Positions 5,748-38,808 of a stretch of 64,000 nucleotides of DNA are shown here, in pieces. The DNA is from an uncultured Armatimonadia bacterium (GTDB taxonomy: Bacteria > Armatimonadota > Zipacnadia > Zipacnadales > UBA11051), in NCBI GenBank assembly GCA_964390495.1, contig CAYMIN010000011.1:29701-93700 (forward strand). The letters run 5' to 3'. The translations under genes and the position numbers were made by a program. The stretch's first letter is position 1; each line of letters starts with the position of its first letter. The notes under the pieces were generated by a model. The model did no database searches and was not told the DNA's origin. It saw only the letters and a program-made list of their open reading frames with translations.

Positions 5748-6731
5748 TCAGGCGGCAAGCTCTCGGCGGGGCGTCGCCTTAGTGATCTGCACGGCTAGCT
5801 GCCCGTCGTGGATCCCCGGGACGCCGATGAACTTGTGTTCGCCCGCGATCACGATCTCGACCCACTTCGCCCGGCTGCGTGCCGAGTGAAGCTCAATCAC
5901 ATCCCCGACTGCCAGCCTGGACATTTGACTTAGCGACAGCCGCGACCTGGCTATAACCGCTCTTACCCCGACCAGACAGGGCGCGACCGAGGTCAGTACC
6001 GCCCTCTCGCCTTCCTCGGCGGTGAGCTGCTGCTTTTCGCCTCGCGTCAGCAGCCGGTGCATTGTCGAAGATGGCAGCCCGAAGGTCATATAGCCTTTGT
6101 GGGAGCCGAGACGCAATCGGTAGCTGGCACAGACCAGCCATTCCTCGTTCGCGTCGCCGGCCACGGCGACGGGAGACAGATAGACCTCCTTCATCTCGAC
6201 CGGGGCCGCCTCGAAGCACTTGGCGGTCAGCTTCATTACGGTGATTATCTCTTCAACGAGCGAGCGGAATAGCTGGACTTCCACTTGGCTCATTGCGCGG
6301 CGTGGTGTGTTGGCCTCCTGTCCGGTTCCGCCCAGCATCATATCCAGGGCACTGCTCACCAGCGGGCGATCGAGATGGACTAAAGCCTCCGCGGCATCGC
6401 CTGGGGAGCCGAACGACGCCAGAGCTGCATCCTCGGGCAAGGCCCGCAGATACTGCCGCGAAGTCATGCGGTCCACGGCAACGAAGCTCACCTCAACTAC
6501 GCGGTCGAGATAGGCGCGCAGGGTGCGATTGAGGGCCGAGCCGACAGCTTCGCAATCCCGCTCGATTTGCCGTACCTGGGTGCTGGAAAGCCGGTGAGCG
6601 CGCCGAAAGTCGTAAAGAGTTATCTCGACATCGTCTCTGTCGCTCTGGCTAAGATACTCGTTCAGGGTGGCATGCAGCGTTTCAAGTTCTCTCTGGGAAA
6701 CAACGTTACCCGAGGGGTCATTAGGCGGCAT
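5748..6731 (-). CDS. fliM: Flagellar motor switch FliM family protein (orphan)
   Basis: N-terminal VSQRELETL resembles the LSQxEIDAL CheY-binding motif; YDFRRAHRLS; LDMMLGGTG; C-terminal SpoA/FliMN region LAVGDVIEL...GVPGIHDGQLAVQI. Confidence 0.8.
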   Translation of the reverse strand: MPPNDPSGNVVSQRELETLHATLNEYLSQSDRDDVEITLYDFRRAHRLSSTQVRQIERDCEAVGSALNRTLRAYLDRVVEVSFVAVDRMTSRQYLRALPEDAALASFGSPGDAAEALVHLDRPLVSSALDMMLGGTGQEANTPRRAMSQVEVQLFRSLVEEIITVMKLTAKCFEAAPVEMKEVYLSPVAVAGDANEEWLVCASYRLRLGSHKGYMTFGLPSSTMHRLLTRGEKQQLTAEEGERAVLTSVAPCLVGVRAVIARSRLSLSQMSRLAVGDVIELHSARSRAKWVEIVIAGEHKFIGVPGIHDGQLAVQITKATPRRELAA

Positions 6732-6857: not shown

Positions 6858-7601
6858 TCAGCTCTCGGCGTCGTCCAGAATCTGCTCCAACTGCTTGCGA
6901 AGTCGTCCCAGCTCCTTGGAGCGGAATGAGCTCTTGGTCGCCTCCAGCACGCTGATAGTCTCCTGGAGAGCCTCCACAAGCGCCGCCAGCCGTGGGCAAT
7001 CCATCAGACCGCAGACGTTCACTTCCGGCTGCTGGTCGGCCAGGGCCGCGGTCAGGTGGCTCAGGTCGAACAGCGCCGTGAATACGTTGCGCAAAGTCAA
7101 GCTGACGAAGTTGCTGATGTCAAGCGGGGCGGCCTTGCCGGAAAGGAGCCGCAGGCGCTTTGCTATGGCCTCCAGGTCTTTCTGCCACTGGCTGAGCTGC
7201 TGATTGGCGGCGCAGACTGCGCGGTAGCTGCGTTGGCAGTTGACGCCCGCTCGCACTACCTCCAGCAGCCGCTGCGGCTCGATCGGTTTGACCATATAGG
7301 CCAGCAGGCGCAGCTCGAGCCCGCTGACGGAGCAGTCCGGATGCGGCTCGTCGGTCACCAGGATTACGGGGATGGCCGCAACGATGTGCGGCAGCTCCGC
7401 GACCACCGCCAGGGCCGCGGCGCGGTTCAGCTTGATGTCAGCGATCAGCAGGTCGTAGTCCGTGGCGCGCAGCATCGCGGCCGCGGTTGTCCCATCGGGT
7501 GCGCAGTCACACTCATAACCTTCGCCGCGCAGTAGAGTGGTGGTCCCGCGGGCAAAGGCCTCGTCGCCATCCGCAATCAGTACGTAACCGGAGTCGCTCA
7601 T
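6858..7601 (-). CDS. Response regulator (CheY-like receiver + helical C-terminal domain)
   Basis: VLIADGD, LLIADIKL (phosphoacceptor D), ILVTD and YMVKP; no HTH or enzymatic output recognised. Start at MSDSGY (7601). Confidence 0.85.
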   Translation of the reverse strand: MSDSGYVLIADGDEAFARGTTTLLRGEGYECDCAPDGTTAAAMLRATDYDLLIADIKLNRAAALAVVAELPHIVAAIPVILVTDEPHPDCSVSGLELRLLAYMVKPIEPQRLLEVVRAGVNCQRSYRAVCAANQQLSQWQKDLEAIAKRLRLLSGKAAPLDISNFVSLTLRNVFTALFDLSHLTAALADQQPEVNVCGLMDCPRLAALVEALQETISVLEATKSSFRSKELGRLRKQLEQILDDAES

Positions 7602-8198
7602 TGTCGCTCGCCTATCACCTGTCTCAGTAATGGCTGCTGAGCCGGATTGCCGGGTGGGGTCCCTGGGCAGCCCGAGGTCGTTGCCGGGTCGTAAGCAAAA
7701 AAGAAGGCACAACCGCAAGCGCTGTCCCAGGGACAGTCACTCGATTGCACCTCCGACTTGCAGGCCTTTTATCCTGCCCGGCAAGGCCAACCTGTGTTCA
7801 GGCTCAAGATTTGCAGACCACTCACGCCCGTGTCCGTCCTTGGATTATCTAGACAGGTGTCCTTACCCACCACTGTATTCTCCAACGCCCAACTCGACTC
7901 CTCGTGAGAACAACGGGGTTCTGCGACTGTTGCGGCGCTTGAGGGCACCGTGCCATCGTCCTCGCACGAGCAATCGGTCTCAAGATCAGGAAACTGGGTA
8001 ACGACACTCGCCTGCTCGCTGCGCCACCACATGCGAGCCTAGTACTGACTTGCGCAACTCCGCGAAAGCACCCCGTCGGCCTGGGCAGGCAAGGATGCCT
8101 GCCCTCCAGGAAAGCATTATTGCGTGTAGTTACTCAAGAGAGTACTAGCCTGGCGACGTTCAGCGACGCCGGCTGACTGCAGATGAGGAGTTCAGAGC

Positions 8199-8226: not shown

Positions 8227-8331
8227 TGGCCGAGCGCAGGTGACCGTTTCGTCCACAAGCGCACCATCGGCGTATCCGTGGCGGGGCGAAGTTGCACTTT
8301 GCCTTCGGCAGACATCGAAGGGCTGTTTGGC

Positions 8332-10170
8332 ATGTCACTACTGCTGAGAATCCTGGTCTTCGCGCGGCGCTATCGCTGGATGCTGGCCTGGGCGCTGTTT
8401 CTGGTCTTTGTGGCCACGGCCCTGAATATGGTAACCCCGTATTTGTTCGGGCTGTTGGTGGATCGTATCGCCGGCTACGAGAAGCTGGGCGAGCTGGGCA
8501 ATGTACCACCGGTCGAGCTGTCGGCTTATCGCGACGAGGCGTGGGTCTTTCTGCTGCTTATCTGTGGCGTAATTCTCGCCGTGGCCACCATCGCCACGCT
8601 TACCACCTACCCGCAGCAGATGATGCTGATCTTTGCGGGCAACCGCATCGTTTACGATATTCGCCGGCGGCTCTTTCGTCACCTGCAGCACCTCTCAATG
8701 CGCTACTTCGACAGCAACCCTCATGGCCGCATCATGTCCCGCGTCTTGTACGACGTTGAGGCCGTGCAGGGCATTGTCAGCAGCCAGCTTGTCGAGATCG
8801 TCACCAATGTCATCACCCTGACCGTAGCCATCGTGGTGCTGTTCATCTACAATGTCAGGCTTGCCTCGATCGCCGTCGGCATCCTGCCGCTGTATGTGTT
8901 CAACTTCCTGCTGATCAGGCAGCACATCCGCCATTCCGCCGCCGAGGCCCGCGAGCAGTACTCGCAAATCTACACCACATTGTCGGAGAGCATCTCCGGC
9001 ATCAAGGTCGTCAAGTCGTTCACCAGGGAGAGCTCGGAGGCGCGCGGCTTCGCCCGGGAAGTGCGCGAGAGTATCGGGATGAACATGCGCCTGGGCCACT
9101 GGCGCATCGTCCTCCATATCGGCGCCAACGTCATCACTCGCCTCGCCAATATCGGCATCCTGCTCTATGGCGGCTACATGGTGCTCTACACCGGCGAGAT
9201 CACCATGGGCGACCTGGTCGCCTTCAGGTCCTATCAGAGCATGCTCTACACGCCGGTGATAATGCTAGTGACCATCAACAATCAGATTCAGGTGGTGCTG
9301 GCCGCTATCGAGCGCATCTTCGAGACCCTCGACACCTCACCCGACATCGAGGAGCGCCGCGATGCCATCAAGCTCGAGAAGATCGAAGGCCGTGTCGAGA
9401 TGGAGCATGTGGACTTCGCCTACGAGCCGGGCGAGTTGGTGCTGGATGACATCAACTTCATCGCCGAGCCCGGCACGGTCACGGCCCTGGTCGGCCCCAG
9501 CGGCAGTGGCAAGAGCACTCTGGTCCATCTCATCCCCCGCTTCTACGACCCAACCAACGGCCGCGTCCTCATGGACGGCCACGATCTGCGCGATGTCTCG
9601 ATCAGCTCCTTGCGCCGCAACATCGCTATGGTGATGCAGGAGGACTTCCTGTTCATGGGCACGCTGCGCGAGAATATCAAGTACGGCCGTCCCGAGGCCA
9701 CTGACGAGCAAGTCCTGCAGGCGGCGGTGGCGGCCAATGCCCATGACTTCATCATGGAGTACCCGGATGGCTATGAAAGCATGGTCGGCGAGCGCGGCAC
9801 CCGGCTCTCCGGCGGCCAACGCCAGCGTATCTCCATCGCCAGGGCCATTCTGCGCGATCCCAGAATCCTCATCCTCGACGAGGCCACCAGTGCCCTCGAC
9901 TCCGAATCCGAAGCCCTGATCCAGGAAGCTCTCGAACACCTGATGAAGAACCGCACTACCTTCACTATCGCCCACCGGCTCTCCACCGTCATGAACGCCG
10001 ACATTATCTTGGTCCTCGACGAGGGGCGCATCGTCGAGCGCGGCAAGCATGTCGAGCTGGCGACCGCCGGCGGGGTCTATCAGATGCTGTGCGAGGTCCA
10101 GTTCAGCCAGGCCGCCGAAAAGATGCGGGAGCACGAAGAAGAACTCCGCCGCGCCCGCGAGGAAGAATGA
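8332..10170 (+). CDS. ABC exporter, fused permease/ATP-binding (MsbA/Sav1866 type)
   Basis: TM domain, Walker A GPSGSGKST, signature LSGGQRQR, Walker B ILILDEATSALD, IAHRLST. Start at MSLLLR (8332). Confidence 0.95.
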   Translation: MSLLLRILVFARRYRWMLAWALFLVFVATALNMVTPYLFGLLVDRIAGYEKLGELGNVPPVELSAYRDEAWVFLLLICGVILAVATIATLTTYPQQMMLIFAGNRIVYDIRRRLFRHLQHLSMRYFDSNPHGRIMSRVLYDVEAVQGIVSSQLVEIVTNVITLTVAIVVLFIYNVRLASIAVGILPLYVFNFLLIRQHIRHSAAEAREQYSQIYTTLSESISGIKVVKSFTRESSEARGFAREVRESIGMNMRLGHWRIVLHIGANVITRLANIGILLYGGYMVLYTGEITMGDLVAFRSYQSMLYTPVIMLVTINNQIQVVLAAIERIFETLDTSPDIEERRDAIKLEKIEGRVEMEHVDFAYEPGELVLDDINFIAEPGTVTALVGPSGSGKSTLVHLIPRFYDPTNGRVLMDGHDLRDVSISSLRRNIAMVMQEDFLFMGTLRENIKYGRPEATDEQVLQAAVAANAHDFIMEYPDGYESMVGERGTRLSGGQRQRISIARAILRDPRILILDEATSALDSESEALIQEALEHLMKNRTTFTIAHRLSTVMNADIILVLDEGRIVERGKHVELATAGGVYQMLCEVQFSQAAEKMREHEEELRRAREEE

Positions 10171-10227: not shown

Positions 10228-10980
10228 GTGAGAATCATGCTTATAGACTTCCACGCCCATGTACAGGATGACGACGAGGGCACCCGTGCCGACGAGATGG
10301 TGCGCGAGGCCCGGCGCATCGGCATTGATTACATCGGCATCAGCGAGCCGGTGACCCACAGCCGCGACAGCCTGGAGGTCGTCCAGCGCCAGAATGACCT
10401 GGTCTTCCGTACCTACGAGCGCTACCCCGACTTCTTCATCCCGCTGGTCTATACCCACGCCAATCTCGGCCAGGCGGCGCTGGACGAAGTCCACAAGGGC
10501 TTCGACCGCGGGGCCAGAGGCATCAAGATGGAGGTTGCGACGGTGATTACCGACAAGTGCGTCGAACCGATCATCGAGGAGGCCATCGCCCGTGACGTGG
10601 CGCTGCTGCAGCACAGTTGGCACAAGGTCACCGGCAACTACCCCTTCGAGACCGATGGCGTCCACTGTGCCGAGATCGGCCGCCGCTACCCGGAGCTCAA
10701 GCTCGTCATGGCCCACATCAGTGGCGATAACCGCTGGGGCATCCGCGCCATCCGCGACGTGCCCTCGGTCTATACCGACTGCAGCGGCTCGATCGCCGAC
10801 TACGGTCACATCGAGTATTGCGTCGAGCAACTCGGCGCCGACCGCTTGCTCTGGGGCACCGATGCCCGGGGCGCGGATTTCCTCTACACCTTAGCCAAGG
10901 TCCGCGACAGCCACCTCAGCGACGAAGCCAAGGCCAAGGTCCTGGGCCTCAACGCCGCCAAGCTGCTGAAAGTGGTCTGA
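10228..10980 (+). CDS. Amidohydrolase family 2 protein, canonical metal ligands
   Basis: DFHAH, GIKM, LQHS, MAHI and WGTD all present; alternative start at 10237. Confidence 0.88.
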   Translation: MRIMLIDFHAHVQDDDEGTRADEMVREARRIGIDYIGISEPVTHSRDSLEVVQRQNDLVFRTYERYPDFFIPLVYTHANLGQAALDEVHKGFDRGARGIKMEVATVITDKCVEPIIEEAIARDVALLQHSWHKVTGNYPFETDGVHCAEIGRRYPELKLVMAHISGDNRWGIRAIRDVPSVYTDCSGSIADYGHIEYCVEQLGADRLLWGTDARGADFLYTLAKVRDSHLSDEAKAKVLGLNAAKLLKVV

Positions 10981-10987
10981 AGATTCC

Positions 10988-11794
10988 ATGGCCGTCCACA
11001 AAATGGAGAAAGCGACGATAACCATGATTGACTTCTGTTGCGACATCGGGAATTACGCCTTTCGCGAATGGCCCGCCGATGATACCGCCGGCACGCTTGC
11101 GCTGATGGACCGGGCCGGCATTGATTTGGCGGTCGTCGGCAGCATTGACGCCATCACCTACGTCAGCCCGCACCCGGCCAACGAGCGGCTGATGGCCGAC
11201 CTCCAGGCCAACGATCCCGACAGCCGGCTGATACCCTATACGACCCTCAGCCCGGTCTATCCCGGCGTCGAGCGCGATATGGAGGAAAGCCGCGAGCTAG
11301 GCTTCCGCGGCCTGAAGCTCTATCCGAGCTACCACGGCTATCAGATTGACGATCCGCCGGCACTCAGGCTGATCGAGATGGCCACAGGCTGGGGCTGGCC
11401 GGTGATAGTCACCGTGCGCATCGAGGACGAGCGCCACCACCACCCGCTGATGAAGGTCAAGCCGGTCCCGCTCGAGAGCATCATGTGGGCGGCCCGGCAG
11501 CTTCCCGAGGCCACCATCATCCTCAGCGCCGGCAACAGCGCCGGGACGCCGCGCTTCCTGGAGCAGACCCGCGATCTGCCCAACGTCTATGCCGAGCTGT
11601 CTTACGTCAAGGGACCGCTACGGGCGCTGGAGATTCTGGTGGAGAGGTTTGGCAGCGAGCGGATGCTCTTGGGCACGCACATGCCGTTTGTCTATCCCGG
11701 CTGCGGGATCGCCAAGATCGCCGAGGCTGACATCTCCGAGGCGGCTAAGCAGGCGATCCTGGAGGGCAACGCCGCACACATTCTCGGATTGTGA
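10988..11794 (+). CDS. Amidohydrolase-fold protein lacking metal ligands (putative pseudoenzyme partner)
   Basis: TIM-barrel pattern retained (GIDLAVV, GLKLYP, FGSERMLLGT, ILEGNAAHIL), but HxH is replaced by CCD, both later His are absent, and the catalytic Asp is replaced (GTH). Confidence 0.8.
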   Translation: MAVHKMEKATITMIDFCCDIGNYAFREWPADDTAGTLALMDRAGIDLAVVGSIDAITYVSPHPANERLMADLQANDPDSRLIPYTTLSPVYPGVERDMEESRELGFRGLKLYPSYHGYQIDDPPALRLIEMATGWGWPVIVTVRIEDERHHHPLMKVKPVPLESIMWAARQLPEATIILSAGNSAGTPRFLEQTRDLPNVYAELSYVKGPLRALEILVERFGSERMLLGTHMPFVYPGCGIAKIAEADISEAAKQAILEGNAAHILGL

Positions 11795-11981
11795 CTCAAA
11801 GGGATGGTTAGAGTGCATGAAAAAAGGTTTTATTTGTTTGCGTTTGCGATATACTAAAGATAATAGTGGCGAAAGTGCGCCGAAGATGTATAAATAGCCT
11901 CACTGGTGCCATGAGTACCTCGGGGATGGCGGGGGCTGGACAAAGCTTCGCTATGCCGTTCGTAGTTCGGAGGTGAAAGCA

Positions 11982-12758
11982 GTGGTTGAAGTGATCGGTG
12001 TGGCCTTGCCAAATGCGACAGCCATTCATTCTAAAGTTAGTATGGTAAAATACGGGCCTTATCCGCTTCACATTGTCGTAATGGACATCACTAACTGGAC
12101 TCGCCTATGCTATGAGGCCAAACAAGCCAATCGCTTCGACGCTATCGCCGAAGGCTTCCGCATATTCGTCGCAGAAGCCTACCAGGCCGAACTCCAGGTG
12201 CGCGTGAACCCGTGCCGCCGGCCGGATAAGTTCCCCCTGGCACGGGAGAGCGAAGATAGTGAACTAGTGGATCCTACGGTGGACATCGCAAACCATACTG
12301 GCGACGGTTTCATTCTGCTATGTTCCAACGCCGAGATGACGCTTGATTTTGCCCGCAAGCTTCGAGACAACGCATTTCGTGCTCTGGTAGATTGCCTCAA
12401 GGCTAGCCACATTTGTTCGGCTGATGACGTTGAGTTACGTCTTGCTATTCATTCCGGAGATGTATGGACAATTCTCAGTAGCGAATCTCAGGCTGCCGAA
12501 GAGCAGTTCGCGATGGGTGATTTCTACTTCTCGGAAGCAATCAACCTCGCGTCAAGACTCGTAACATCAGACTTCTGTCGCGCCGCCAGTACGCGGGCAA
12601 TCTGTACGGAAGAGTTCCGACAATGCTTGCCCGAAAAATACGGGCCTCTATTCGGCCAGCCCCATGAATTGCGCGGGCGCAAAGATGGTGACGAAGAGCG
12701 CGACATAGACTATCCGACCAATGTTCACGTTCACGAGATCTTTGGAGAACCGAAGTAA
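11982..12758 (+). CDS. Stand-alone class III nucleotide (adenylate/guanylate-type) cyclase domain protein
   Basis: VVMDIT, TGDGF, LRLAIHSGDV, AINLASRL and ELRGRK motifs. GGAGGTG RBS precedes GTG 11982 (track start 11973). Looks AT-richer than its flanks (by eye). Confidence 0.75.
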   Translation: MVEVIGVALPNATAIHSKVSMVKYGPYPLHIVVMDITNWTRLCYEAKQANRFDAIAEGFRIFVAEAYQAELQVRVNPCRRPDKFPLARESEDSELVDPTVDIANHTGDGFILLCSNAEMTLDFARKLRDNAFRALVDCLKASHICSADDVELRLAIHSGDVWTILSSESQAAEEQFAMGDFYFSEAINLASRLVTSDFCRAASTRAICTEEFRQCLPEKYGPLFGQPHELRGRKDGDEERDIDYPTNVHVHEIFGEPK

Positions 12759-12768
12759 CGCGTGTGGA

Positions 12769-13323
12769 TTATCGCCGTACAGAGTATATACACCCGCAAT
12801 ACTTCTGGCGATACAGGCCGTACTTCTTCGCTAGCTCCACACTGCGCTTGAAGCCGTCGTGCTTTCTGAAATCCTCGCCCAAGAACTTGACACCAACCAA
12901 CGCTGCCGCCGCCTCTCCGTGCGGGTTGATCTGCGCCGCCGGCTTGTGCGGGCTGACGGTCAGCGTCGAGGCGAAATACTCGCAGCCCAGCTCTTTTGCC
13001 TTTTGGGCCGTCTTCTGCAGCCGTAGGGCGAAGCACACCTCACAGCGCGCCCCGCCTTCAGGCTCGTCTTCAAGGCCGCGCACGGCTTCGGCCCATGCTG
13101 CTTCCCCGCTCTCGTCAACGATTAGTTCCATGCCGACTAGCTCGGCCAGTTGCCGCATCGCCGCGAGCCGCTTGTGGGCTTCCTCAAGCGGCTGGATATT
13201 GGGGTTATACCAGTAGCAGATCACCTCATAATCGCGCGCCAGCCGCTCATAGACTGCGGTGGCGTCCGGCGCGCAGCAGCAGTGCAAGAGCAGTCTCGGT
13301 TTCTTCTGTTCGCGTTCAGTCAT
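12769..13323 (-). CDS. queH: Epoxyqueuosine reductase QueH (DUF208)
   Basis: LLLHCCCAPD, YNPNIQP, RCEVCF, STLTVSPHK, YRQKYCGC. Confidence 0.92.
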   Translation of the reverse strand: MTEREQKKPRLLLHCCCAPDATAVYERLARDYEVICYWYNPNIQPLEEAHKRLAAMRQLAELVGMELIVDESGEAAWAEAVRGLEDEPEGGARCEVCFALRLQKTAQKAKELGCEYFASTLTVSPHKPAAQINPHGEAAAALVGVKFLGEDFRKHDGFKRSVELAKKYGLYRQKYCGCIYSVRR

Positions 13324-13331
13324 TTCATCCG

Positions 13332-13389
13332 CCCTCACCCCCGGCCCCTCTCCCGCTGGGAGAGGGGTGCCCGAAGGGCGGGGTGAGGG
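13332..13389. repeat. Nested palindromic intergenic element (CCCTCACCCC/CCCCTCTCCC type)
   Basis: Outer pair CCCTCACCCC/GGGGTGAGGG, inner CCCCTCTCCC-GCT-GGGAGAGGGG and GCCC-GAA-GGGC. A partial copy lies at 27503-27540. Confidence 0.8.
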
Positions 13390-13393
13390 GCAG

Positions 13394-14470
13394 TTAACTC
13401 CCCCTTACCTCCCCATCCTCCGAAATCTCCGTCACCTCGCTCAGTCCCGCATAGGCCACCGCTCGCAGCCAGGTGCTGAGGCTCTCGCCGGCCTGTATCT
13501 GCAGTTGCCGGTTCTCTTTCATGCACTCGGTCAGGATCGCCGGGTAGCTGGAGAACGGCTCCAGCGCGATCACATACCACCGTCCCCAGCTCGGCGCTTG
13601 CGGGTTGCCGCACAGCGAGATCCAGTACCAGATATGCTTGAACACCTCGGTGTCGAAGGCCATGCCGAAGCCGACTTGCTTCTCGGTGTTGGTGACCGCG
13701 TACCAGCCGTCGGTCAGGTCGGTCAGATAAAGCATGTCCTCCAGCTTGCTCTCAGGCGGGCCAATGTGGCGCACATCAATCATCGCCCCGTCCTGGCTCT
13801 CGCCGGTGGGCCAGGTGAACTCGTGCAGCGGCTGGAAGCGGCCCTCCGGCGGCGCGTTGGGGTCCACTACCACCTTGCGCGCGCCGCAGGACACCACACA
13901 GTCCTGAGACAGAAACGGCGGCCCGAAGGCCGGATGATGTCCCCACATCAGGTCCAGGTCCTGGTCGCTTTCGTTGGTGAGGATTTCATCAATCTCCAGC
14001 ACGCCGCAGCCGCTGCGTAAGGTCAGCGTCTTTGCGAGCAGAAACGGCGTCCGGTAGGTCCGGGTCCAGAGTTTCGCCTGCACGATTTCGGGGTCGTCCT
14101 CGATAATCTGGCAGTTCCAGGGGATGCCCCACAGTTCCCCGTGCTGGCCCATCTCGACGGCGCGATACTCACAGGAGCGCCCGCCGTTGGGCAGCAGCTC
14201 CTGCCAGCCGCCTTCGTAGAAGTCCGAGAAGGGCCCGTGGGTGGCCTCGCGCATGTTATGGCTGTTCAGGTGCGGCCTGACGCCCAGCGGGCTGCGCCAC
14301 ATGAAGTCGGTGTCGGTGGGCTTGTGCACAAACTCGAAGATATCGCTGCCCTTGTCGAGCAAGATGGAGACGCGGATCAGCTCGTTTTCGATGACCATCA
14401 TGCGCAGGCCGCGATAGGTAAGCTCGTCGTTGACCCGGCAGCCGTAGTTACGCTCGTGGGTGTAAGCCAT
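13394..14470 (-). CDS. Aldose 1-epimerase / galactose mutarotase-like (DUF4432-like) protein
   Basis: GGWQELLPNGG, HGELW, MWGHHPAFG and ALEPFS motifs. Confidence 0.8.
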   Translation of the reverse strand: MAYTHERNYGCRVNDELTYRGLRMMVIENELIRVSILLDKGSDIFEFVHKPTDTDFMWRSPLGVRPHLNSHNMREATHGPFSDFYEGGWQELLPNGGRSCEYRAVEMGQHGELWGIPWNCQIIEDDPEIVQAKLWTRTYRTPFLLAKTLTLRSGCGVLEIDEILTNESDQDLDLMWGHHPAFGPPFLSQDCVVSCGARKVVVDPNAPPEGRFQPLHEFTWPTGESQDGAMIDVRHIGPPESKLEDMLYLTDLTDGWYAVTNTEKQVGFGMAFDTEVFKHIWYWISLCGNPQAPSWGRWYVIALEPFSSYPAILTECMKENRQLQIQAGESLSTWLRAVAYAGLSEVTEISEDGEVRGS

Positions 14471-14652
14471 CGCTCTGACCTCCTATGCAGCACTGACCTA
14501 GATGCAGGCACTCCTGGGTATTGTTTCGCTGGCAGGCAGGTTCTGGCCTCCCATTACGCAGAACAGGAAGTATTCTATTCCCGGACGGCGAATAGTATAT
14601 GCGTAGGCAGTCGTGCGGGTGCCTACAATGCAGATGGAGAGGAGTTCATTTC

Positions 14653-17232
14653 ATGGTCAAGACGCGGGCTATTATGCTGACAGGAATCATCTTAGCTCTA
14701 TGCGCTGTCGCCTCATCCGCAGCGATTGACCTCAACCTGCTTGTCAATGGGGACTTTGAGGCAGGCGCTTGGAGTCAGGCGGTGTGGAGCGGTCAGGGCG
14801 AAAGCTCCATCACTAGCGACCAGTTCCACGGTGGGGCCAAGTCGCTGCACCTGCAGGGCACCCAGCCGGCCACCGTCGTCGCGGACCGTAGCTTCGGGCT
14901 GTTTGCCCCGGGTAAGCCGATCTCGCTCAGCGGCTATTGGAAGGGCAAGGTAACCGCCGGCACCGGTGGCCGCATCGTCCTGCGCTGGCTCGATGGAGCG
15001 GGCGAAAAGCTAGCCGACGAGGCGCCGATTACCAAGAACGGGGAGTTCGATTGGGAGCGCTTTGAGGCCACCTTTACACCGCCACAAAAGGCTGCCAGGG
15101 GCCAGCTCTTCCTGGAAATCTGGGAGACCGTCGGTGAGGTCTGGTATGACGATGTGCAGGTGCTCCAGCAGGTTGAGCCGCTGCGGCCTGGCGACATCCT
15201 GACCGGCAAGGCCCTCGACATTGTCAGAGTCGCGGTTTTCGACGCCAACGCGGCCGGTGGCAGGGGCTATGGCGGGCCGGGGATTCAGCAGATGCTGGCC
15301 GCCCAGCCGGGCATCAGCGCCGAGATTGTCAGTGACCTTTCCCTGCGCACTCTGGTCAAGTACGATGCCCTGATGCTGCCGAATGTCCACGACCTGGGCC
15401 GGGCGCAGAGTGACAGCCTGCTCGCGGCCAATCCGCAGCTTGCCTGGATGGCCGATGCGCGGGCGGCTATCTCGGCTTACGTGCGCATGGGCGGCGGGCT
15501 GCTCCTGACCCACATTTCATGCGGCCAGGGCGCTTTCGCTACTCCGCTGGCCCCACGGATTACCACAGTCATAGACAAGACCTTCGACATCCGGGCGACC
15601 GAGTTTCTCGACCATCCTGTCACCGTCGGCCTGGAGCCGTTTGAGCCGAGCTTCGAGGACTCCCGCGTTTTGCAGGCAGGCCCGTTGGGACACGTCATCA
15701 TGAAGAACAAGTCCGGTCACGCGCTGGCGGTAGTCGGCAACCTCGGCAACGGCAGAGTCATAGGGATCGGTATGTGCCCCGGCATTGACAAGAACACTGA
15801 CCCGGTGGTTCCGAGCGGCGGTGAGGCGCAACTGGTCGTCAATGCCGTCAAGTGGGCCGCCGCCACCGAGCTGCAGCCCTACTTCGTAGTCGTCTCGCCG
15901 AATGTGGTGACGCTTACCGAGCCCGATCAGCCGCTTGAGCTGACCGTGACCCTCCTCCCGACCCAGGACCCCGCCGCCGGTGAAGTGGCTCTGGAGTTCG
16001 CTCTGGCAGGGCAGGAGGAGAGAGTTGCGCCGCAGAAAATCAGTGACCGGGAAAGCACCGACGGTCTCAGCACCATGCGCGTCAGCTTCCCCACCGCTGA
16101 TTTGACCGATGGAACGTATTATGTCGAGGTGAAAACGAGTATGGCCACTTATGATGAGCCCGACCTTGTCGCCACAGTTGAGAACCAGGCCGGATTTGCC
16201 AAATTCGCCGACACGCTGCCCAAGTCGGAGTTTGAGTGGAGCGCGATGAACGTGCACGGGCCGGGCGCGATCAGGAGCGAAGCCGACGCCGTCCAGATGG
16301 CCCAGATGGCCAATGAGATGCACTTCAAGGCGGTGCTGTACAATGCCAAGCCGCCGGACGGCTACCAGTATTACAATACCGAGGTCGGCGAGAAAGCGCC
16401 CGGCTTTGAGGAGGTTGACCCTCTGGCGCTGGTGGTGAAGGCCTGCCACGACGAGGGCCTCCAGCTTCTGGTGCAGTTCTGCACCTTCGCCGAGGGCAGC
16501 GCCGCCAATCCCAGCAAGTTCATCCGCGAGCACCCCGAGTATGCCGACTGGAACCCGGTTGACGGGCCGGACCTGACCAAGCATCAGCATGGTGTCTTCG
16601 GCTGCCCCGACCGGCCGGAGGTGCGGCAGTACGAACTGGCCTTGATCCGGGAGATGTGCGAGAACTACGACATTGACGGGATCAGCTTCGACTATATCCG
16701 CTACAAGAACGACGCCTACTGCGTGTGCCCGTACAGCCGGGAGAAGCTGGCCGAATACTGCCAGGCGCATCCCGATTTGAGCGAGGCCGCGGCCCGCGCG
16801 CAGATGTCCAAGGAGGCTATCGTCAGCTTTACCTGGGAGGTGCGCAAGCTGCTGGACGAGTTCGACCCCAAGCTGCTGCTGCACGGCTACTGCCATCCGA
16901 CGTGGGCCAACGAGTTCCCGCTCAAGTACCTGTCCTTCCGCGCCTCGGCTCACGGCAAGGACCCGGCACGCGGCGGTGGCTGGTCGCTGCAGCAGGTGTA
17001 CGAGGCGGCCCAGCGCAATGTCGAGTTGGCCGACGACCACATCGAGTACATGCGGGCGGCGCCGATGGCCGATACCGCTTACCTGGACTGGGCCAAGAGC
17101 CCGGAGCGCTTCCGCCGCGAGCTGCGTTTGATCAGCCACGCCGGCGCTCGCGACATCATGATCTATCTCTACTCCACGCTCCGTCACAAGCCGGAGCTGC
17201 GCGAGGCCATCGCCCAGGAACTGGCCGACTGA
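14653..17232 (+). CDS. Secreted multidomain glycoside hydrolase: CBM4/9-like + ThuA/GATase-like + GHL10 (DUF187)-like catalytic barrel
   Basis: Signal peptide; LLVNGDFE...WYDDVQV (CBM-like); YDALMLP...GGGLL...HPVTVGL (ThuA-like); CPDRPEVRQY...NYDIDGISFDYIRY (GHL10-like). Start at MVKTR (14653). Confidence 0.72.
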   Translation: MVKTRAIMLTGIILALCAVASSAAIDLNLLVNGDFEAGAWSQAVWSGQGESSITSDQFHGGAKSLHLQGTQPATVVADRSFGLFAPGKPISLSGYWKGKVTAGTGGRIVLRWLDGAGEKLADEAPITKNGEFDWERFEATFTPPQKAARGQLFLEIWETVGEVWYDDVQVLQQVEPLRPGDILTGKALDIVRVAVFDANAAGGRGYGGPGIQQMLAAQPGISAEIVSDLSLRTLVKYDALMLPNVHDLGRAQSDSLLAANPQLAWMADARAAISAYVRMGGGLLLTHISCGQGAFATPLAPRITTVIDKTFDIRATEFLDHPVTVGLEPFEPSFEDSRVLQAGPLGHVIMKNKSGHALAVVGNLGNGRVIGIGMCPGIDKNTDPVVPSGGEAQLVVNAVKWAAATELQPYFVVVSPNVVTLTEPDQPLELTVTLLPTQDPAAGEVALEFALAGQEERVAPQKISDRESTDGLSTMRVSFPTADLTDGTYYVEVKTSMATYDEPDLVATVENQAGFAKFADTLPKSEFEWSAMNVHGPGAIRSEADAVQMAQMANEMHFKAVLYNAKPPDGYQYYNTEVGEKAPGFEEVDPLALVVKACHDEGLQLLVQFCTFAEGSAANPSKFIREHPEYADWNPVDGPDLTKHQHGVFGCPDRPEVRQYELALIREMCENYDIDGISFDYIRYKNDAYCVCPYSREKLAEYCQAHPDLSEAAARAQMSKEAIVSFTWEVRKLLDEFDPKLLLHGYCHPTWANEFPLKYLSFRASAHGKDPARGGGWSLQQVYEAAQRNVELADDHIEYMRAAPMADTAYLDWAKSPERFRRELRLISHAGARDIMIYLYSTLRHKPELREAIAQELAD

Positions 17233-30941: not shown

Positions 30942-33701
30942 CTACATTCCGCCAATCGGCGTTTCCACCTGCGTGGCAGTGCGCACGGTGGGGTCGCCGG
31001 CCTCATCGTAGCTGATCAAGGTCGAGCCGGCAATGTAGAAAGTATTGGTGCCGGGTATCACGCGGTGCGGGAAATAGACTTGTCTAGTCTCGTCTGGCGT
31101 GATTTCGAGGCCGGGCTCGTCGAGGACGTGAATCACCGTAGTATCGCCGACACGCTCGACGCGGTCAATGGTGTAGCCGTGGGCGGTGGTATCGCCGTGG
31201 GTAATGACCATAGTCTCGCCCGCCAGCTCGACATCGGTCGGCAGTTGCACAGGGGTAAGGAAGGCATCATTCTCGTCACCGGCTTCCCGGCGCTGCACGC
31301 CGGTGATGTCGCCGGTCAGCGGCCCGGCGGTCTTGATATGCAACTGACCCAGCTTCAGTTCCGCGCCGTCGAGAATATACGCCCACTTGACCTCGCCGCC
31401 CTGCAACCGCAGATGAGCCAGCCGGCCCCGGAAGCTGAGATTGGCCGCCGGCACCAGGACCTCCTGCTCGTACGGGGCCTGCTCGTTGGTGCTGATGAGA
31501 TAGTCGGTGATGTCGCCGCTGCGCACGGCCAGCGCCACGCAGTTCTCAGGCCCTGCGACGGCCAACTGCTCAACACTGTCAATGCAGGTGGTCTCGAAAT
31601 AGGGTTCGTGTACCGCCACGAAGGTGCTGCTGAGCGGTTCTACCGGCTCTGCCCCTGCCTCAGCGGGTGTGCCCCGGCGGACGGCGATAATCGGCATCCA
31701 GAGGTCGTGAATTGTGGATTCATCGCGTTGCGCTCCGCGGATTGAGGGGCACATGCCGGTGATGACGCGGGTGCCGGCGGCGCCCAGCACATGGGTCTTG
31801 AGGGCGGTACCGTCGGCGCAGGTCAGGGTCATCTCCCAGGGGCCGTCAGTCACAGTCTGCTGCAGGTCTTTGATATGCGTGTAGAGCGTGCCTGCCAGCG
31901 GCGCAAATCGCAGGCTGGTAGTCAGGGCCTGATTCTCGTTGGCATAGCCGTGCTCCATCCAGTCGTGGACCGAGCCGCCCTTGACCCGGAAAACGTCGAA
32001 GAGATAAGAATCGTGCTCGCCGACGCGGGCCAGCACCAGGGCGCGCTTGTAAAGCTCGGCCTTGCCCTCGTAGCGGGTGGTGCCATCGGCCTCGACGGCG
32101 AAGACCTGTGGGCCCTTGGTGGCGAAGAGGCCGAGCCGCCCCAGAACGCCGCCGCCTTGATTGGTCTGGTCAATGACAACCGTATTGTGGCCGGAGGTGC
32201 CGGAGCTCCAGCCGCGCAGGCTGGTGCGGCAGTAGCCGAACTCGGAGAGCAGCTCCTTGCCCTTGGCGTGGAATATGATGTTGAGGGTGTCGCGGTGATC
32301 GTGGCCGGAAGCGCCGCCATAGTGCAAGTGGGCCTGGACCTGGTCGTCGCCCTCGCCCATACCCAGGATAGCGTGCCCCATGCCGGGCAGGATCAGACAC
32401 TCGGACTTGGTGCGGGCCAGCGGCCAGCAGACCTTGTTCCAGTCACAGTCATGGGTCACAGCGTAGTAGCTGCGCTGATTCTTGCCCATAGGCAGCGCCA
32501 GCTTGACGACACAGGTGACCGCGCGATTAAGCGCCGGGATGTCGCGCTGCATGCGCAGGTCATCGTAGCGTTCGCCGGTCTTCTCGTAGGTATAGCCGGG
32601 TGGGTCGGTATGGCCGTCGGCGAGGTCGGGAACCATCGCCAAGCGGTTGGTAATCTGGCGATGATAACACGCCGTGCCTTCATGCCACATCCCGTCATAG
32701 AAGTAGCTTTTCTCCAGGATTCCCTTGAACCAGCCGACGGCGTAGTGGATCCAGTCGGGCTCACCCAGCACGCGACCGGCGACGATGAGGCCCATGATGC
32801 AGTTCCCATCCATGTTGCCCCAGAACTTGGGATACTTTTGGAGGCTCTCCACACAGGCGCGCAGGAGGTCCTTCTCGACGAGTTGCCTGGTCCCGTCGCC
32901 GAGCTCTTCATAGGCGCCGCTGTCGCAGATTAAGTCGTGAGCGTTGAACGGTCCCATCGGAACATTGCCGTAGAACCAGCGGCTCCATTTGCCGGCCCAG
33001 TAGGGCATGGAGCCTGCATAGTCAGGCGCGCAGATCTTGGAGTCGTAGAAGGCGCTGCCCTGCTGACCTGCGCCGGGCTTTATCTGGATGTCCTGCCACG
33101 GCGACACGCTGTGATTATCGTAGCCGCGGATGGGATAGCCGGGGAAAACCTCGGCAAAACGGCGCAGAATCACGGCTGATTTGTGCGCATACTGCGGCTC
33201 CTTGGTGACATGGTAAAGCAGGGCCAGGTCGTAAGCGCGGGCGGCGAAGTAGCCCTTGATGGAGCCGCGGATTCTGGCATCCCAGAAATACGTGCGCCCA
33301 TCTTCGGCCTGGTGGTAGTGATACTCCTGCTCCTGGCCGAGGGGGTTGACTATGGTGAGCGTTTTGTCCATCGGATACTTCTCGCTGGGATAGACCTGGC
33401 CGCAGTGGGTGCACTTGATCTGGTAAGGGTTGTCTATGCTCCACTCGAAAGTGGCGGAGCGGCCACCTTCAGCCCCGCCGCGACAGTTCTCGCAGCCGAC
33501 AATGCTGAAATCGGTCTTGTCCGAGATGAACTGCGAGATCTCCTCATCGCTCATCGCCATGACCTTGGCGACGCTCTCTTTGAGCTTGGCCTCGTCGCCG
33601 GTCGGGTTGTAAACCGGGTGCTGTACCTCGTAGGCACAGCCGGCGGTGACCGCCAATAGCAAAAGCGCTGCCACAACGGTCGGCTTCAGCAGGATGGTCA
33701 T
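30942..33701 (-). CDS. Heparinase II/III family protein (exported, possible lipoprotein) with N-terminal CxxC...CxxC module
   Basis: DGMWHEGTACYH, HYGGASGHDHRDTLNI, SGHNTVVID, YLFDVFRVKGGSVHDW; signal ending TAG-C. Confidence 0.82.
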   Translation of the reverse strand: MTILLKPTVVAALLLLAVTAGCAYEVQHPVYNPTGDEAKLKESVAKVMAMSDEEISQFISDKTDFSIVGCENCRGGAEGGRSATFEWSIDNPYQIKCTHCGQVYPSEKYPMDKTLTIVNPLGQEQEYHYHQAEDGRTYFWDARIRGSIKGYFAARAYDLALLYHVTKEPQYAHKSAVILRRFAEVFPGYPIRGYDNHSVSPWQDIQIKPGAGQQGSAFYDSKICAPDYAGSMPYWAGKWSRWFYGNVPMGPFNAHDLICDSGAYEELGDGTRQLVEKDLLRACVESLQKYPKFWGNMDGNCIMGLIVAGRVLGEPDWIHYAVGWFKGILEKSYFYDGMWHEGTACYHRQITNRLAMVPDLADGHTDPPGYTYEKTGERYDDLRMQRDIPALNRAVTCVVKLALPMGKNQRSYYAVTHDCDWNKVCWPLARTKSECLILPGMGHAILGMGEGDDQVQAHLHYGGASGHDHRDTLNIIFHAKGKELLSEFGYCRTSLRGWSSGTSGHNTVVIDQTNQGGGVLGRLGLFATKGPQVFAVEADGTTRYEGKAELYKRALVLARVGEHDSYLFDVFRVKGGSVHDWMEHGYANENQALTTSLRFAPLAGTLYTHIKDLQQTVTDGPWEMTLTCADGTALKTHVLGAAGTRVITGMCPSIRGAQRDESTIHDLWMPIIAVRRGTPAEAGAEPVEPLSSTFVAVHEPYFETTCIDSVEQLAVAGPENCVALAVRSGDITDYLISTNEQAPYEQEVLVPAANLSFRGRLAHLRLQGGEVKWAYILDGAELKLGQLHIKTAGPLTGDITGVQRREAGDENDAFLTPVQLPTDVELAGETMVITHGDTTAHGYTIDRVERVGDTTVIHVLDEPGLEITPDETRQVYFPHRVIPGTNTFYIAGSTLISYDEAGDPTVRTATQVETPIGGM

Positions 33702-33734: not shown

Positions 33735-34877
33735 TCAGTAGCGATACTGTCGGGCCGTGTCGAACATGGCGATGATATTGTCGGCGGGCACATCGGCCTG
33801 AATGTTATGGACCGAATTGAGCACGTAGCCGCCGCCTGCGCCCAGGACCTCCAGGATGCGCTTGGTCTCTGCGGCCACCTGCTCGGGCGTGCCGTAGGGC
33901 AGTACTTGCTGAGTGTCGATGCCGCCCCAGAATGAGATGCGGTCGCCGAACTCGGCCTTGAGCTCCGCCGGGTCCATGTCGGCGGCACCGACCTGGACGG
34001 GATTCAGAGCATCCACACCATTCTCGATCAGGCTGGGGATGAACTGGCGAACACTGCCGCAAGTGTGGAAGAAGATACGGGCCTCGGTGCGGGCCTTGAC
34101 GAAGCTGATGACCTCTTTTTGCCTGGGCTTGATGAACTTGTCGAAAATACCCAGCGACATCATCGGCCCGCCCTGGTGGCCGAAATCATCGGCAAGCTGC
34201 ACAATGTCAAGGTACTGGCCGGCCGCGGGAAGATAAGCCTCCCAGGCGGACAGGTGCAACTCCAGCAGCTTGTCGAGGAACTTGTTGACGAAGACCTCGT
34301 CAGTGACCAGGTCCATCAGGTAGTTCTCGAAACCGCGCAGATACCACGCGAACTCGAAAAAGGAGGCCGAGCCGAAGAAGACCACCGCGTAGTCGGTATT
34401 CTCGTGCAGATCGCGCGCAGATTGCTCCAGGTCCGCAACCCCCGCAGCGGTGTACTGCTCCGGCCAGTCATAATGGTCGAGGTCGGCCGCGCTGAGGCCG
34501 GCCAGCGGATGGCTAACCATGTCGAAATACAGCGCATTAGCCTTGGGCATCTTCCACTCAATGCCCCAGTCGTCGGTGTAATTGTAGCTGTCCTGGTCTT
34601 CGCGTATTTCAAGGCCAGCGCCGCTGCGGGAGCCGGTGGAAACGTAACGGGTATCTACACCGAGGCGGGTCAGCAGCTCTTCGCTGGGCTGGGCGAGTTG
34701 CTGCTTGAAATCCATGATCTCGGTTGGCTCCGCGATGCCCAGTGCATCCTTCAGGCGGTCATAGGCGAAGCGGTGAATGCCGGTGACGACACCGCCGAGG
34801 TCAATCGGCACGCGGTCAGGCCTTGCATGGTTCAGAGCTGTCAGCAGGCGTTGGCGAGGCGTCATTGAATCGGCCAT
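33735..34877 (-). CDS. URO-D/methylcobamide methyltransferase-family protein
   Basis: MTPRQR...PDRVPIDLG, ADDFGHQ, FFHTCG, DALNPVQ, FWGGIDTQ, VHNIQADVP. Confidence 0.88.
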   Translation of the reverse strand: MADSMTPRQRLLTALNHARPDRVPIDLGGVVTGIHRFAYDRLKDALGIAEPTEIMDFKQQLAQPSEELLTRLGVDTRYVSTGSRSGAGLEIREDQDSYNYTDDWGIEWKMPKANALYFDMVSHPLAGLSAADLDHYDWPEQYTAAGVADLEQSARDLHENTDYAVVFFGSASFFEFAWYLRGFENYLMDLVTDEVFVNKFLDKLLELHLSAWEAYLPAAGQYLDIVQLADDFGHQGGPMMSLGIFDKFIKPRQKEVISFVKARTEARIFFHTCGSVRQFIPSLIENGVDALNPVQVGAADMDPAELKAEFGDRISFWGGIDTQQVLPYGTPEQVAAETKRILEVLGAGGGYVLNSVHNIQADVPADNIIAMFDTARQYRY

Positions 34878-35113: not shown

Positions 35114-36109
35114 TCAGCGGTTCTGATACCACTTCTCGAAAAACTCGCGGCCGCGCCGGTAAGAGCTCTCCAGCCACTCGAAATTGTCGGCGAACCAGCG
35201 CACCGTCCGGCGCATCCCCGCCTCCCACTCGATCTCCGGCTGCCAGCCAAGCTGCGCAATCTTGTCGCCCTGCATCGAGTAGCGCACATCATGCCCCGGG
35301 CGGTCCTCAACGTGGCTAATCAGGCTGTCAGGCTTGCCCAGCTCGTCGAGCAGCAGACGGACCGTCTCCAGGTTGGGGCGCTCGTTGTGGGCAGGTATAT
35401 TATAGGCCTGGCCCGGCTCGCCCTTCTCCAGCACCGTCAGCGTGGCGCGGCAGTGGTCCTCGACGTGCAGCCAGTCGCGCACCTGCATCCCGTCACCATA
35501 GACCGGCAGCGGCTCATCGCGCAGCGCCTTATAAACAAATAGCGGGACCAGCTTCTCCGGGAACTGGTAAGGGCCATAGTTGTTGGCAGGACGCGTGATG
35601 AGCACCGGCAGGCCATAGGTGACCCAATAGGCGCGGGCCAGGCGGTCGGCACCGGCCTTGGAGGCCGAGTAGGGATTACGGGCCATCAGCGGAGCGCTTT
35701 CATCAAAGGACACGCCCTCGGCCGCGCCATAAACCTCGTCGGTGGACATGTGGAGGAAGCGCTGGACCTGGGCCTCGCGGGCCGCCTCCAAGAGGCGAAA
35801 GGTGCCCTCGAAATTGGTGCGTACCGCCTGCTCGGCGCCGAAGATGCTGCGGTCAACGTGCGATTCGGCGGCCAGATGCAGAACGACCTGACAGCCGCTG
35901 GTGGCCGCCTGTACCGCGTCGGGGTCGCAGATGTCGCCCTCCACCAGCTCCACGCGAGCATCGTCGGCAGCCTCGGCGAGATTCGCACGACTGCCCGCGT
36001 AAGTCAGCTTGTCGAGTATCCTGATCTCGGCCGCGGCTCGGCTGGCGAGCAGGAAGCGCACCAGATTGCAGCCGATGAAGCCACAACCGCCGGTTATCAG
36101 GTAGCGCAT
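35114..36109 (-). CDS. rfbB: dTDP-glucose 4,6-dehydratase
   Basis: ITGGCGFIG, DKLTYAG, HLAAESHVDRSI, STDEVYG, PYSASKA, NNYGPYQFPEKL, DRPGHDVRY. Confidence 0.93.
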   Translation of the reverse strand: MRYLITGGCGFIGCNLVRFLLASRAAAEIRILDKLTYAGSRANLAEAADDARVELVEGDICDPDAVQAATSGCQVVLHLAAESHVDRSIFGAEQAVRTNFEGTFRLLEAAREAQVQRFLHMSTDEVYGAAEGVSFDESAPLMARNPYSASKAGADRLARAYWVTYGLPVLITRPANNYGPYQFPEKLVPLFVYKALRDEPLPVYGDGMQVRDWLHVEDHCRATLTVLEKGEPGQAYNIPAHNERPNLETVRLLLDELGKPDSLISHVEDRPGHDVRYSMQGDKIAQLGWQPEIEWEAGMRRTVRWFADNFEWLESSYRRGREFFEKWYQNR

Positions 36110-38596: not shown

Positions 38597-38808
38597 GATA
38601 GCATACTCCATCGCTTGGGACTGCCTCGCGACAGCCGTCAAGCTGAAGCAGTCCGGGATTGCCCGGCTGTGACACTGGGTAGTTTAGCCACGAGTGGCGA
38701 TATATCCTCCTGAGACCTGCTAAGAATCTGGCAGGATTTTGCATGGCATGGAGGAATATACTAGGAAACGGGCTGAACAAAGTCGGTGCGATGAGAGGGT
38801 GTGGCGTG

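Follow-up and report, generated by a model that had tools for sequence, protein, structure and literature searches.

The region at positions 10228-11794 of a 64-kb stretch of DNA from an uncultured Armatimonadia bacterium (contig CAYMIN010000011.1; the whole stretch of 64,000 nt is referred to below as the window) contains two open reading frames (ORFs) on the same strand, separated by 7 nt. Both encode proteins of the Amidohydro_2 family (PF04909), the first (A1) with and the second (B1) without the ligands of a metal site. A second pair of this kind (A2 and B2; module 2) is located on the opposite strand. The four genes, together with the kinds of evidence available for each, are as follows:

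10237-10980, + strand: A1, proposed metal-site subunit, a minimal PF04909 TIM barrel of 247 aa (Pfam, alignment, ribosome-binding site)
10988-11794, + strand: B1, proposed ligand-less partner subunit (Pfam, family alignment, AlphaFold2 (AF2) model, Foldseek, ratio of nonsynonymous to synonymous substitution rates (dN/dS))
36955-37728, - strand: A2, proposed metal-site subunit of module 2, 257 aa (Pfam, alignment)
36175-36954, - strand: B2, proposed ligand-less partner of module 2, 258-259 aa (Pfam, alignment)

The Pfam gathering threshold (26.4 bits) was used as the cut-off for membership of PF04909, and was passed by A1 (62.3 bits, E=8.5e-17), B1 (70.5 bits, E=2.6e-19), A2 (65.8 bits, E=7.3e-18) and B2 (56.3 bits, E=5.5e-15). 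No further PF04909-like ORFs were detected across the window. NCBIfam provided no meaningful match for any of the four proteins, and searches of PDB sequences (with single sequences as well as with profiles) returned distant PF04909 enzymes only, with no solved member of either the A or the B family. The window has a G+C content of 62%, and its nearest relatives are Armatimonadota metagenome-assembled genomes that come from sediment and saline metagenomes. Since orthologues ranging from 100% to ~45% identity were found and the dN/dS values are well below 1, the four ORFs can be regarded as real genes rather than chance reading frames.

The metal-binding set that an earlier, sequence-only reading of this DNA had ascribed to the first gene (HxH, Lys, His, His, Asp) was located in A1 as the motifs HAH (10252-10260), GIKM (10519-10530), LQH (10606-10614), MAH (10708-10716) and GTD (10855-10863), giving the ligand set H6/H8, K97, H126, H160 and D209. 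The corresponding motifs of A2 are HAH, GVKL, LEH, VAH and ATD. The substitutions listed by the same reading for the second gene are likewise present in B1: (i) CCD occupies the place of HxH (11036-11044; C17-x-D19), (ii) GTH replaces GTD (11672-11680), so that the Asp of strand β8 has become His (H231), (iii) the ligand histidines of β5 and β6 are absent, and (iv) two motifs of its own have appeared, LYPSYHGY (11318-11341) and EDERHHHPL (11423-11449; given earlier as DERHHHPL), which correspond to the more general forms LKLYPxYH and R-x-E-D-E-R-H-H-H. In B2 the place of HxH is taken by SNAY (N-x-Y), the β8 position is occupied by Gly (GTG), and the motif VDYRQSH is found.

The ORF of A1 opens at GTG 10228; the most likely start is ATG 10237 (MLIDFHAH), because it is preceded by AGGAAAG and the homologues are 243-247 aa long. 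For B1, the candidate starts are ATG 10988 (268 aa) and ATG 11024 (256 aa); most of its homologues are 256-259 aa long, with first residues at or slightly before MIDF. B2 starts at GTG 36954 or ATG 36951, abutting the stop codon of A2, and the sequence GGGAGG lies within the 3′ end of A2. No signal peptides were found on A1, A2, B1 or B2, and these proteins should therefore be cytoplasmic.

B as a protein family

A profile of B was used to search 1.84 billion cluster representatives (50% identity clusters). This yielded 446 clusters at E≤1e-30, a number that constitutes a lower bound for the family, and 2,311 clusters at E≤1e-10. The family reaches Armatimonadota, Planctomycetota, Bacteroidota, haloarchaea and others, with reading frames intact across Bacteria and Archaea. 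Homologues of B1 span 100% to 45% identity; those of B2, which falls in a broader type-2 clade of B, reach down to 32% and bear labels that include Armatimonadetes, Thermoguttaceae and Lunatimonas.

Residue conservation was determined over 143 representative B domains. At the first HxH position, Asn is found in 77% of these and His in 4%; the second is variable (Tyr, Phe, Ser, Trp or His), and the position of the β8 Asp holds His in 43% and otherwise Gly or Asn. The ligands that define the metal site (HxH, β5 His, β6 His and β8 Asp) are present in A, where the set is kept in 75-76 of the 76 paired proteins, and are missing from B. The residues that are near-invariant in B, headed by P113 (100%), D15 (98%), H116 (97%), R149 (97%), D147 (94%) and H152 (81%), comprise D15, G21, W23-P24-F25-R26, N65, N88-P89, W94 and D97 in the N-terminal part, R/K110, P113, Y115, H116, Y118, R144, D147, R149 and H152 in the middle, and D/E203-x-S205, G229-T/S, P233, K243 and N261 in the C-terminal part. 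Since B1 and B2 share this set, they belong to one B family. D19, H150, H151 and H231 mark the B1 clade alone and are not family-wide.

The level of identity between the two modules is low (32% for A1 and A2, about 30% for B1 and B2). The recurrence of the arrangement at 36175-37728 had been taken as independent; a second A-B pair is indeed encoded there, on the minus strand, but derived motifs are common to B1 and B2, and the comparison indicates that the two modules descend as ancient paralogues from a single two-gene unit and are not independent inventions.

The AF2 model of B1 (predicted local distance difference test (pLDDT) 89.8, predicted template modelling score (pTM) 0.89) is a (β/α)8 barrel with eight strand-helix units, which, along with the PF04909 match, bears out the proposal that the second gene keeps the fold of the first. 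The same strand-helix pattern is seen in the model of the A half of P0127, a natural A-B fusion protein (see below). Foldseek analysis of the B1 model identified ACMSD, γ-resorcylate decarboxylase, LigW and IDCase as the best structural matches (template modelling (TM) score ~0.7, E ~1e-11, 13-17% identity). According to the AF2 secondary structure, the conserved polar residues of B are placed at or just past the C-terminal ends of the strands, i.e. on the classical catalytic face of the barrel. The loop following β5 (E-D-x-R-x-x-H) is the lowest-confidence part of the B1 model. Judged from this constellation of conserved residues, B may bind a ligand or even catalyse a reaction.

Values of dN/dS, calculated by the Nei-Gojobori method for the window genes versus orthologues with unsaturated dS, were 0.11-0.25 for B and 0.05-0.21 for A. 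A and B are under comparable purifying selection, with no sign of relaxation in B, and the earlier argument against simple decay of the second gene is upheld both by these values and by the family-specific conserved residues.

Coupling of A and B and its interpretation

True B1-type genes were found in 12 species-representative genomes (L001-L012, Armatimonadota and WS1), and in every one of the ten genome loci having upstream DNA an A-type gene with HxH lies immediately upstream on the same strand. In metagenomes, the type-2 alignment retrieved 80 loci, of which 73 were informative; when adjacency was counted by the coordinates of hidden Markov model domains, an A-type domain was directly upstream of B in 69 of these 73, mostly with a 4-nt ATGA overlap; in another two, A lies ~740 nt upstream. 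Loci drawn from pattern-based scans are skewed to particular clades, and ORFs in the loci were called mechanically. B was almost never encountered alone. An upstream A gene is also found in distant members belonging to other phyla, with P0095, P0111 and P0113 (Bacteroidota), with an overlap of ≤11 nt, and P0064 is a divergent A (35% identical to A1) followed by a B-type gene. The scan of genomes for the peptide patterns LKLYP and EDERHHH returned 64 other loci (L013-L076), each of them either an ordinary amidohydrolase with HxH that stands single or a match that is weak and partial; these were left out of the adjacency counts because they are not B-type.

The matrices of pairwise identity for A and for B are strongly correlated (r=0.978 over 76 unique pairs; reached in 0 of 999 Mantel permutations), and the partners have therefore been inherited together. 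In addition, 13 of the 150 best matches of the B profile are natural fusions of the two proteins. They occur in both orders: six are A-B (P0127, P0159, P0189, P0198, P0247 and P0254) and seven B-A (P0168, P0204, P0212, P0218, P0225, P0227 and P0234). Cultured carriers of fusions include Gimesia maris (WP_002644785.1, 600 aa) and, among haloarchaea, Halomontanus rarus and Natronoglomus mannanivorans (567 aa; WP_207592310.1), in which these proteins are annotated merely as "amidohydrolase family protein".

A further link is provided by signals of the twin-arginine translocation (Tat) pathway. Among type-2 metagenome loci in which the N-terminus of A is intact, 42 of 65 have such a signal, of the classical kind, in front of A (e.g. 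...RVSRRTLLKGSAA...), whereas the 258-aa B partners of signal-bearing A proteins start directly at the barrel. The A signals have the form S-R-R-x-L-L-K; signals of this type (such as SRRTLLKGSAA...) are present in L112, L118, L125, L144 and ~40 further metagenome loci (A gene upstream of position 6001), in which the overlapping B gene lacks one. In locus L167 the arrangement is reversed: B (827-1726) bears the signal NRRRFLQSW... and A has none. The B-A fusions P0168 and P0212 begin with RREFL signals, and B is therefore exported together with A in these proteins. A protein lacking a signal can pass through Tat only in association with a partner that bears one (hitchhiker export). The presence of one Tat signal per pair therefore points to cytoplasmic formation of a stable complex and speaks against a transient chaperone role; this pattern suggests hitchhiker export of the A-B pair in the signal-bearing lineages.

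Because of the adjacency with translational coupling, the fusions in two orders, the single Tat signal, the correlated divergence and the purifying selection on B, we consider it probable that A and B make up an obligate heteromeric enzyme of the PF04909 fold, composed of a metal subunit (A) and a ligand-less subunit (B). The earlier suggestion that an amidohydrolase and its ligand-less paralogue act as one unit thus receives strong support from sequence comparison. We infer a physical complex that would have arisen by duplication of a homodimeric ancestor. A would hold the full metal centre (HxH on β1, Lys on β4, His on β5, His on β6 and Asp on β8) and would be the subunit performing the metal-dependent chemistry, be it hydrolysis, lactone opening, decarboxylation or hydration. 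B, which keeps the barrel without metal ligands and presents its own Asp/Asn/His/Arg constellation on the same barrel face, would be required by A for its folding, stability or activity. Most likely it forms the dimer interface and either binds the (probably anionic) substrate in its arginine-rich pocket or completes a composite active site. The simplest model is a heterodimer, or some higher multiple thereof, predicted to assemble in the cytoplasm and to remain there in this organism; in many other lineages it would be exported by Tat on the signal peptide of one subunit.

The AF2 model of the fusion P0127 (pLDDT 86.4, pTM 0.88 over 525 residues) has a global confidence that would not be expected from an arbitrary placement of two barrels, but it was built from a 6-sequence alignment and provides only this global measure (pTM), with no predicted aligned error. 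These limits of the model are among the points that weigh against the proposed heteromer. The β5 loop of B is of low confidence both alone and in the P0127 fusion, and a role for it in the interface is therefore unsupported by the models. At two loci (L104 and L110) an extra gene separates A from B. The sequencing runs that contain the locus are DNA runs, and no RNA-seq was found. The place of the β4 Lys is also occupied by Lys or Arg in the metal-less B; this residue may therefore be a structural trait of the family and not a carboxylated metal bridge. Finally, the conserved polar pocket of B exceeds the needs of a purely structural partner, and fusion and synteny are also compatible with two enzymes catalysing consecutive steps.

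The last two points lead to the alternative that B is itself an enzyme, metal-independent and with a remodelled site, catalysing a step adjacent to that of A in one pathway, which would make the pair or fusion a bifunctional assembly with two active sites and B no pseudoenzyme; it is compatible with a complex, and we regard it as unlikely. Enzymes that act consecutively are typically found fused in two orders, the amidohydrolase superfamily has metal-independent members (LigI, for example), and the near-invariant Asp, Asn, His and Arg residues of B are located on the face where catalysis classically takes place. In the B1 clade, moreover, an Asp at the second HxH His, a His at the β8 Asp and an invariant HHH after β5 give the appearance of a site that has been rewired rather than emptied, but D19, H150, H151 and H231 are confined to that clade. 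B matches no known catalytic motif, it was not found without A wherever this could be judged, and the single-signal Tat pattern requires a stable complex, for which mere pathway coupling has no need. An elaborated form of this alternative, similarly doubtful, would place two different active sites in one dimer: the metal centre of A and a metal-independent site of B (D15, N17, R26, H116, R144, D147, R149 and H152), perhaps re-metallated in the B1 clade, where the Asp at the second HxH position, the His at the β8 Asp position and the HHH loop may serve this purpose. The two sites would act one after the other on an acidic derivative of a sugar, which the recurrently linked enzymes (heparinase II/III-like, ceramidase-like and GFO-type; see below) would release, and in many bacteria the whole assembly would be exported by Tat in folded form, using one signal peptide.

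A far less likely possibility is that B acts as a dedicated maturation or proof-reading chaperone of A, holding A while metal is inserted or until it is exported by Tat, and remains outside the mature enzyme. Tat substrates often have private cytoplasmic chaperones, A alone bears the signal in most exported versions, and B has no catalytic metal ligands. Such a protein would hardly be expected to be joined to its client in stable covalent fusions of both orders, two of which (P0168 and P0212, with the order Tat signal-B-A) must export B; nor would it bear the signal in place of A (L167), accompany the signal-free cytoplasmic pairs of the window or require a conserved polar pocket. The view of B as a decaying, functionless duplicate of A, to which the loss of every canonical metal ligand might point, is refuted by dN/dS values like those of A, by at least 446 clusters with family-specific near-invariant residues, by frames intact in Bacteria as well as Archaea and by the confidently predicted fold.

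Relation to known amidohydrolase systems

The amidohydrolase superfamily is a textbook case of function prediction from active-site ligands, and its members are nearly always annotated, as well as studied, as lone and self-sufficient proteins. The idea of a catalytic subunit accompanied by a ligand-less paralogue has precedents in the superfamily (AibH1H2, PyrC′ and the CRMPs), of which AibH1H2 comes closest. In PyrC′ of the Pseudomonas-type aspartate transcarbamoylase and in animal CRMP/DRP proteins, amidohydrolase barrels lacking the ligands are kept as non-catalytic subunits of hetero-oligomers. These proteins belong to Amidohydro_1/DHOase and not to PF04909, and PyrC′ pairs with the unrelated aspartate transcarbamoylase rather than with its own catalytic paralogue.

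LigI (2-pyrone-4,6-dicarboxylate lactonase) and the sugar lactonases of PF04909/COG3618 share the fold, are metal-independent or weakly metal-dependent, and act on carboxylated or sugar lactones, a substrate class with which the neighbours of A-B (GFO/IDH/MocA, heparinase-like and esterase) would be compatible. LigI retains the HxH, His and Asp residues though metal-free, whereas B has lost them, and it is not known to require a paralogous partner. Among solved structures, the nearest in size (262-272 aa) is PDB 3CJP, which shows a minimal amidohydrolase on its own, the uncharacterized protein CAC3332 of Clostridium acetobutylicum; it gave a target-normalised TM score of 0.72 to the B1 model and matched the A profile with E=6e-15.

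ACMSD-type decarboxylases are catalytic as dimers, in which arginines of the neighbouring subunit are essential (title of PDB 4IFK); this provides a concrete model for completion of the A site by B. No conserved equivalent of a trans-arginine like R239* of ACMSD was found in B by position after β6. The decarboxylases of this type, which include the structural matches of B1 named above, differ from A-B in being homomeric, with metal in every subunit, and in their size (320-370 aa, with extra inserts).

AibH1H2, the 2-aminoisobutyrate hydroxylase of Rhodococcus wratislaviensis, is a PF04909 (αβ)2 heterotetramer (PMC10401708). As in A-B, the genes of two paralogous PF04909 barrels adjoin each other; in AibH1H2 the barrels form an obligate heteromer, as proposed for A-B. 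The catalytic metal site of AibH1H2 is found in one subunit only (AibH2), as predicted for A-B, the role of AibH1 being unresolved (PMC10401708). However, a mononuclear metal is still bound by AibH1, and the oxygenase site of AibH2 is a dinuclear Mn/Fe centre, whereas B is without any metal ligands; A and B are minimal barrels of ~250 aa, unlike AibH1H2; and AibH1H2 requires Rieske and reductase partners, whereas no Rieske, ferredoxin or reductase genes were found near the pairs in the loci examined. AibH chains are absent from the PDB sequence matches at E≤0.01. The amidohydrolase-related dinuclear oxygenases (AROs: AibH2, PtmU3 and SfbO) are distinguished by an N-terminal D-x-H together with a C-terminal D-x-P-H-x-D/E (PMC13154177). 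An identity of A or B as ARO dinuclear oxygenases was rejected, as D-x-P-H-x-D/E is absent from both: its place is taken by GTDARGAD in A1 (GTDxPGAD in the A consensus, with Gly for His), ATDMSVTA in A2 and GTHMPFVY in B1.

Literature searches, which covered the accessions of the cultured members and Tat-hitchhiking amidohydrolases, found no publication specific to the A or B family. New features of the present system are (i) the size and phylogenetic breadth of the B family, (ii) a new conserved pocket alongside the loss of every ligand, (iii) the fusions in both orders and (iv) the arrangement with a single Tat signal. A large family (at least 446 clusters) has thereby been defined that occurs as the partner of a canonical subunit. 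If the heteromer is obligate, thousands of annotations as "amidohydrolase family protein" would refer to half an enzyme, and expression of A alone in structural genomics or screening would be likely to fail. The pair would also offer a clean natural system for the passage from a homodimer to a heterodimer of catalytic and non-catalytic subunits, and would represent a new class of Tat hitchhiker cargo. With cultured organisms that carry fusions, among them Gimesia maris and Natronoglomus mannanivorans, the question is open to direct test.

Neighbouring genes and hints as to the substrate

The genes identified around the two modules are the following:

5748-6731, - strand: FliM-like flagellar switch protein, upstream of the ABC exporter and unrelated to the module
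6858-7718, - strand: response-regulator-domain protein, upstream of the ABC exporter and unrelated to the module
8278-10170, + strand: MsbA-like ABC exporter with fused membrane and ATPase domains (Pfam: ABC_membrane, ABC_tran), directly upstream of A1
11973-12758, + strand: 261-aa ORF directly downstream of B1, no Pfam match
12769-13338, - strand: QueH epoxyqueuosine reductase
13394-14470, - strand: DUF4432 protein (PF14486), 358 aa, two genes downstream of B1
14599-17232, + strand: GHL10/GHL6 glycoside-hydrolase-like protein with a CBM_4_9-like region
30942-33701, - strand: heparinase II/III-like protein (PF07940), 919 aa, three genes downstream of B2
33735-34877, - strand: URO-D-family protein (PF01208), between B2 and the heparinase-like gene
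35114-36109, - strand: dTDP-glucose/GDP-mannose 4,6-dehydratase-like protein, between B2 and the heparinase-like gene
37919-38641, - strand: PurN-type formyltransferase

A sequence scan, which is weakly informative in this respect, revealed no promoter-like or terminator-like site between the ABC exporter and A1/B1, and co-transcription of the three genes is therefore plausible here. To this extent the single operon proposed by the sequence-only reading can be retained, but the exporter lies upstream of A only in close relatives (L001-L008, with B identity down to about 65%), and it was rejected as a general partner of the module since it is absent outside this group. In farther loci its place is taken by an esterase (GCE_fung/AXE1-like, overlapping the start of A) or by a Laminin_G_3 protein. 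Glucuronoyl-esterase/AXE1/DLH-like hydrolases were observed in this position in L079 (6189-7256), L012 (4082-5152) and L011 (49-1107); the stop of the L079 gene overlaps the start of A.

The sole universally conserved unit is the A-B pair itself. Analysis of Pfam enrichment among 82 neighbour proteins from 16 non-redundant loci, which were heterogeneous, revealed no universal third partner. Clade-specific links were found by targeted tblastn. In 12 other loci, spread over different phyla, a homologue of the heparinase-like protein is encoded at a distance of up to 6 kb from the pair, recurrently with type-2 pairs; the neighbour in L084 is 33% identical over its full length, and that in L086 (Bacteroidota, resembling a polysaccharide-utilization locus, with SusD) 24-25%. 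Genes encoding DUF4432 proteins occur at the loci of module-1 relatives and in one haloarchaeon, where the gene (L169, 9784-10872; product 35% identical to the window copy) adjoins that of an A-B fusion. The heparinase-like and DUF4432 proteins are possible pathway partners of the pair. Other recurrent, but not universal, neighbours encode Ceramidase_alk-like proteins (6 loci), GFO/IDH/MocA oxidoreductases, a 3-keto-disaccharide-hydrolase-like protein and a sulfatase.

With low confidence, these neighbours hint at the catabolism of sugar or uronate derivatives, e.g. by hydrolysis of a lactone or amide following an oxidoreductase or lyase step. The heparinase II/III-like, DUF4432 and ceramidase-like proteins are poorly understood, and the substrate of A-B could open the way to an uncharacterized step in polysaccharide or glycoconjugate catabolism.

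The following minor observations were also made. The heparinase-like protein of the window (30942-33701) has an N-terminal lipoprotein-like leader and a cysteine motif of the form C-x2-C...C-x2-C. The DUF4432 gene of L169 is also located beside ceramidase-like and GFO/IDH/MocA genes, and the DUF4432 link spans Bacteria and Archaea. The order of the URO-D and dehydratase-like genes is kept in close relatives (L087-L092), and L113 contains a URO-D-like gene whose product is 33% identical. Only contigs almost the same in sequence as the window (L081-L083) yielded the 261-aa ORF downstream of B1.

In Gimesia maris, the fusion gene ends an apparent operon that consists of genes for a PSCyt1/PSCyt2/PSD1 protein, a DUF1501 protein and the fusion. 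As observed in L168 (3662-9803; ABCE01000005.1), the gene of this Tat-B-A fusion overlaps the end of the DUF1501 gene, which in turn overlaps the PSCyt1/PSCyt2/PSD1 ("planctomycete cytochrome") gene. This three-gene arrangement ties the module to the abundant and unexplained DUF1501 + DUF1549/1553 gene pairs of Planctomycetes.

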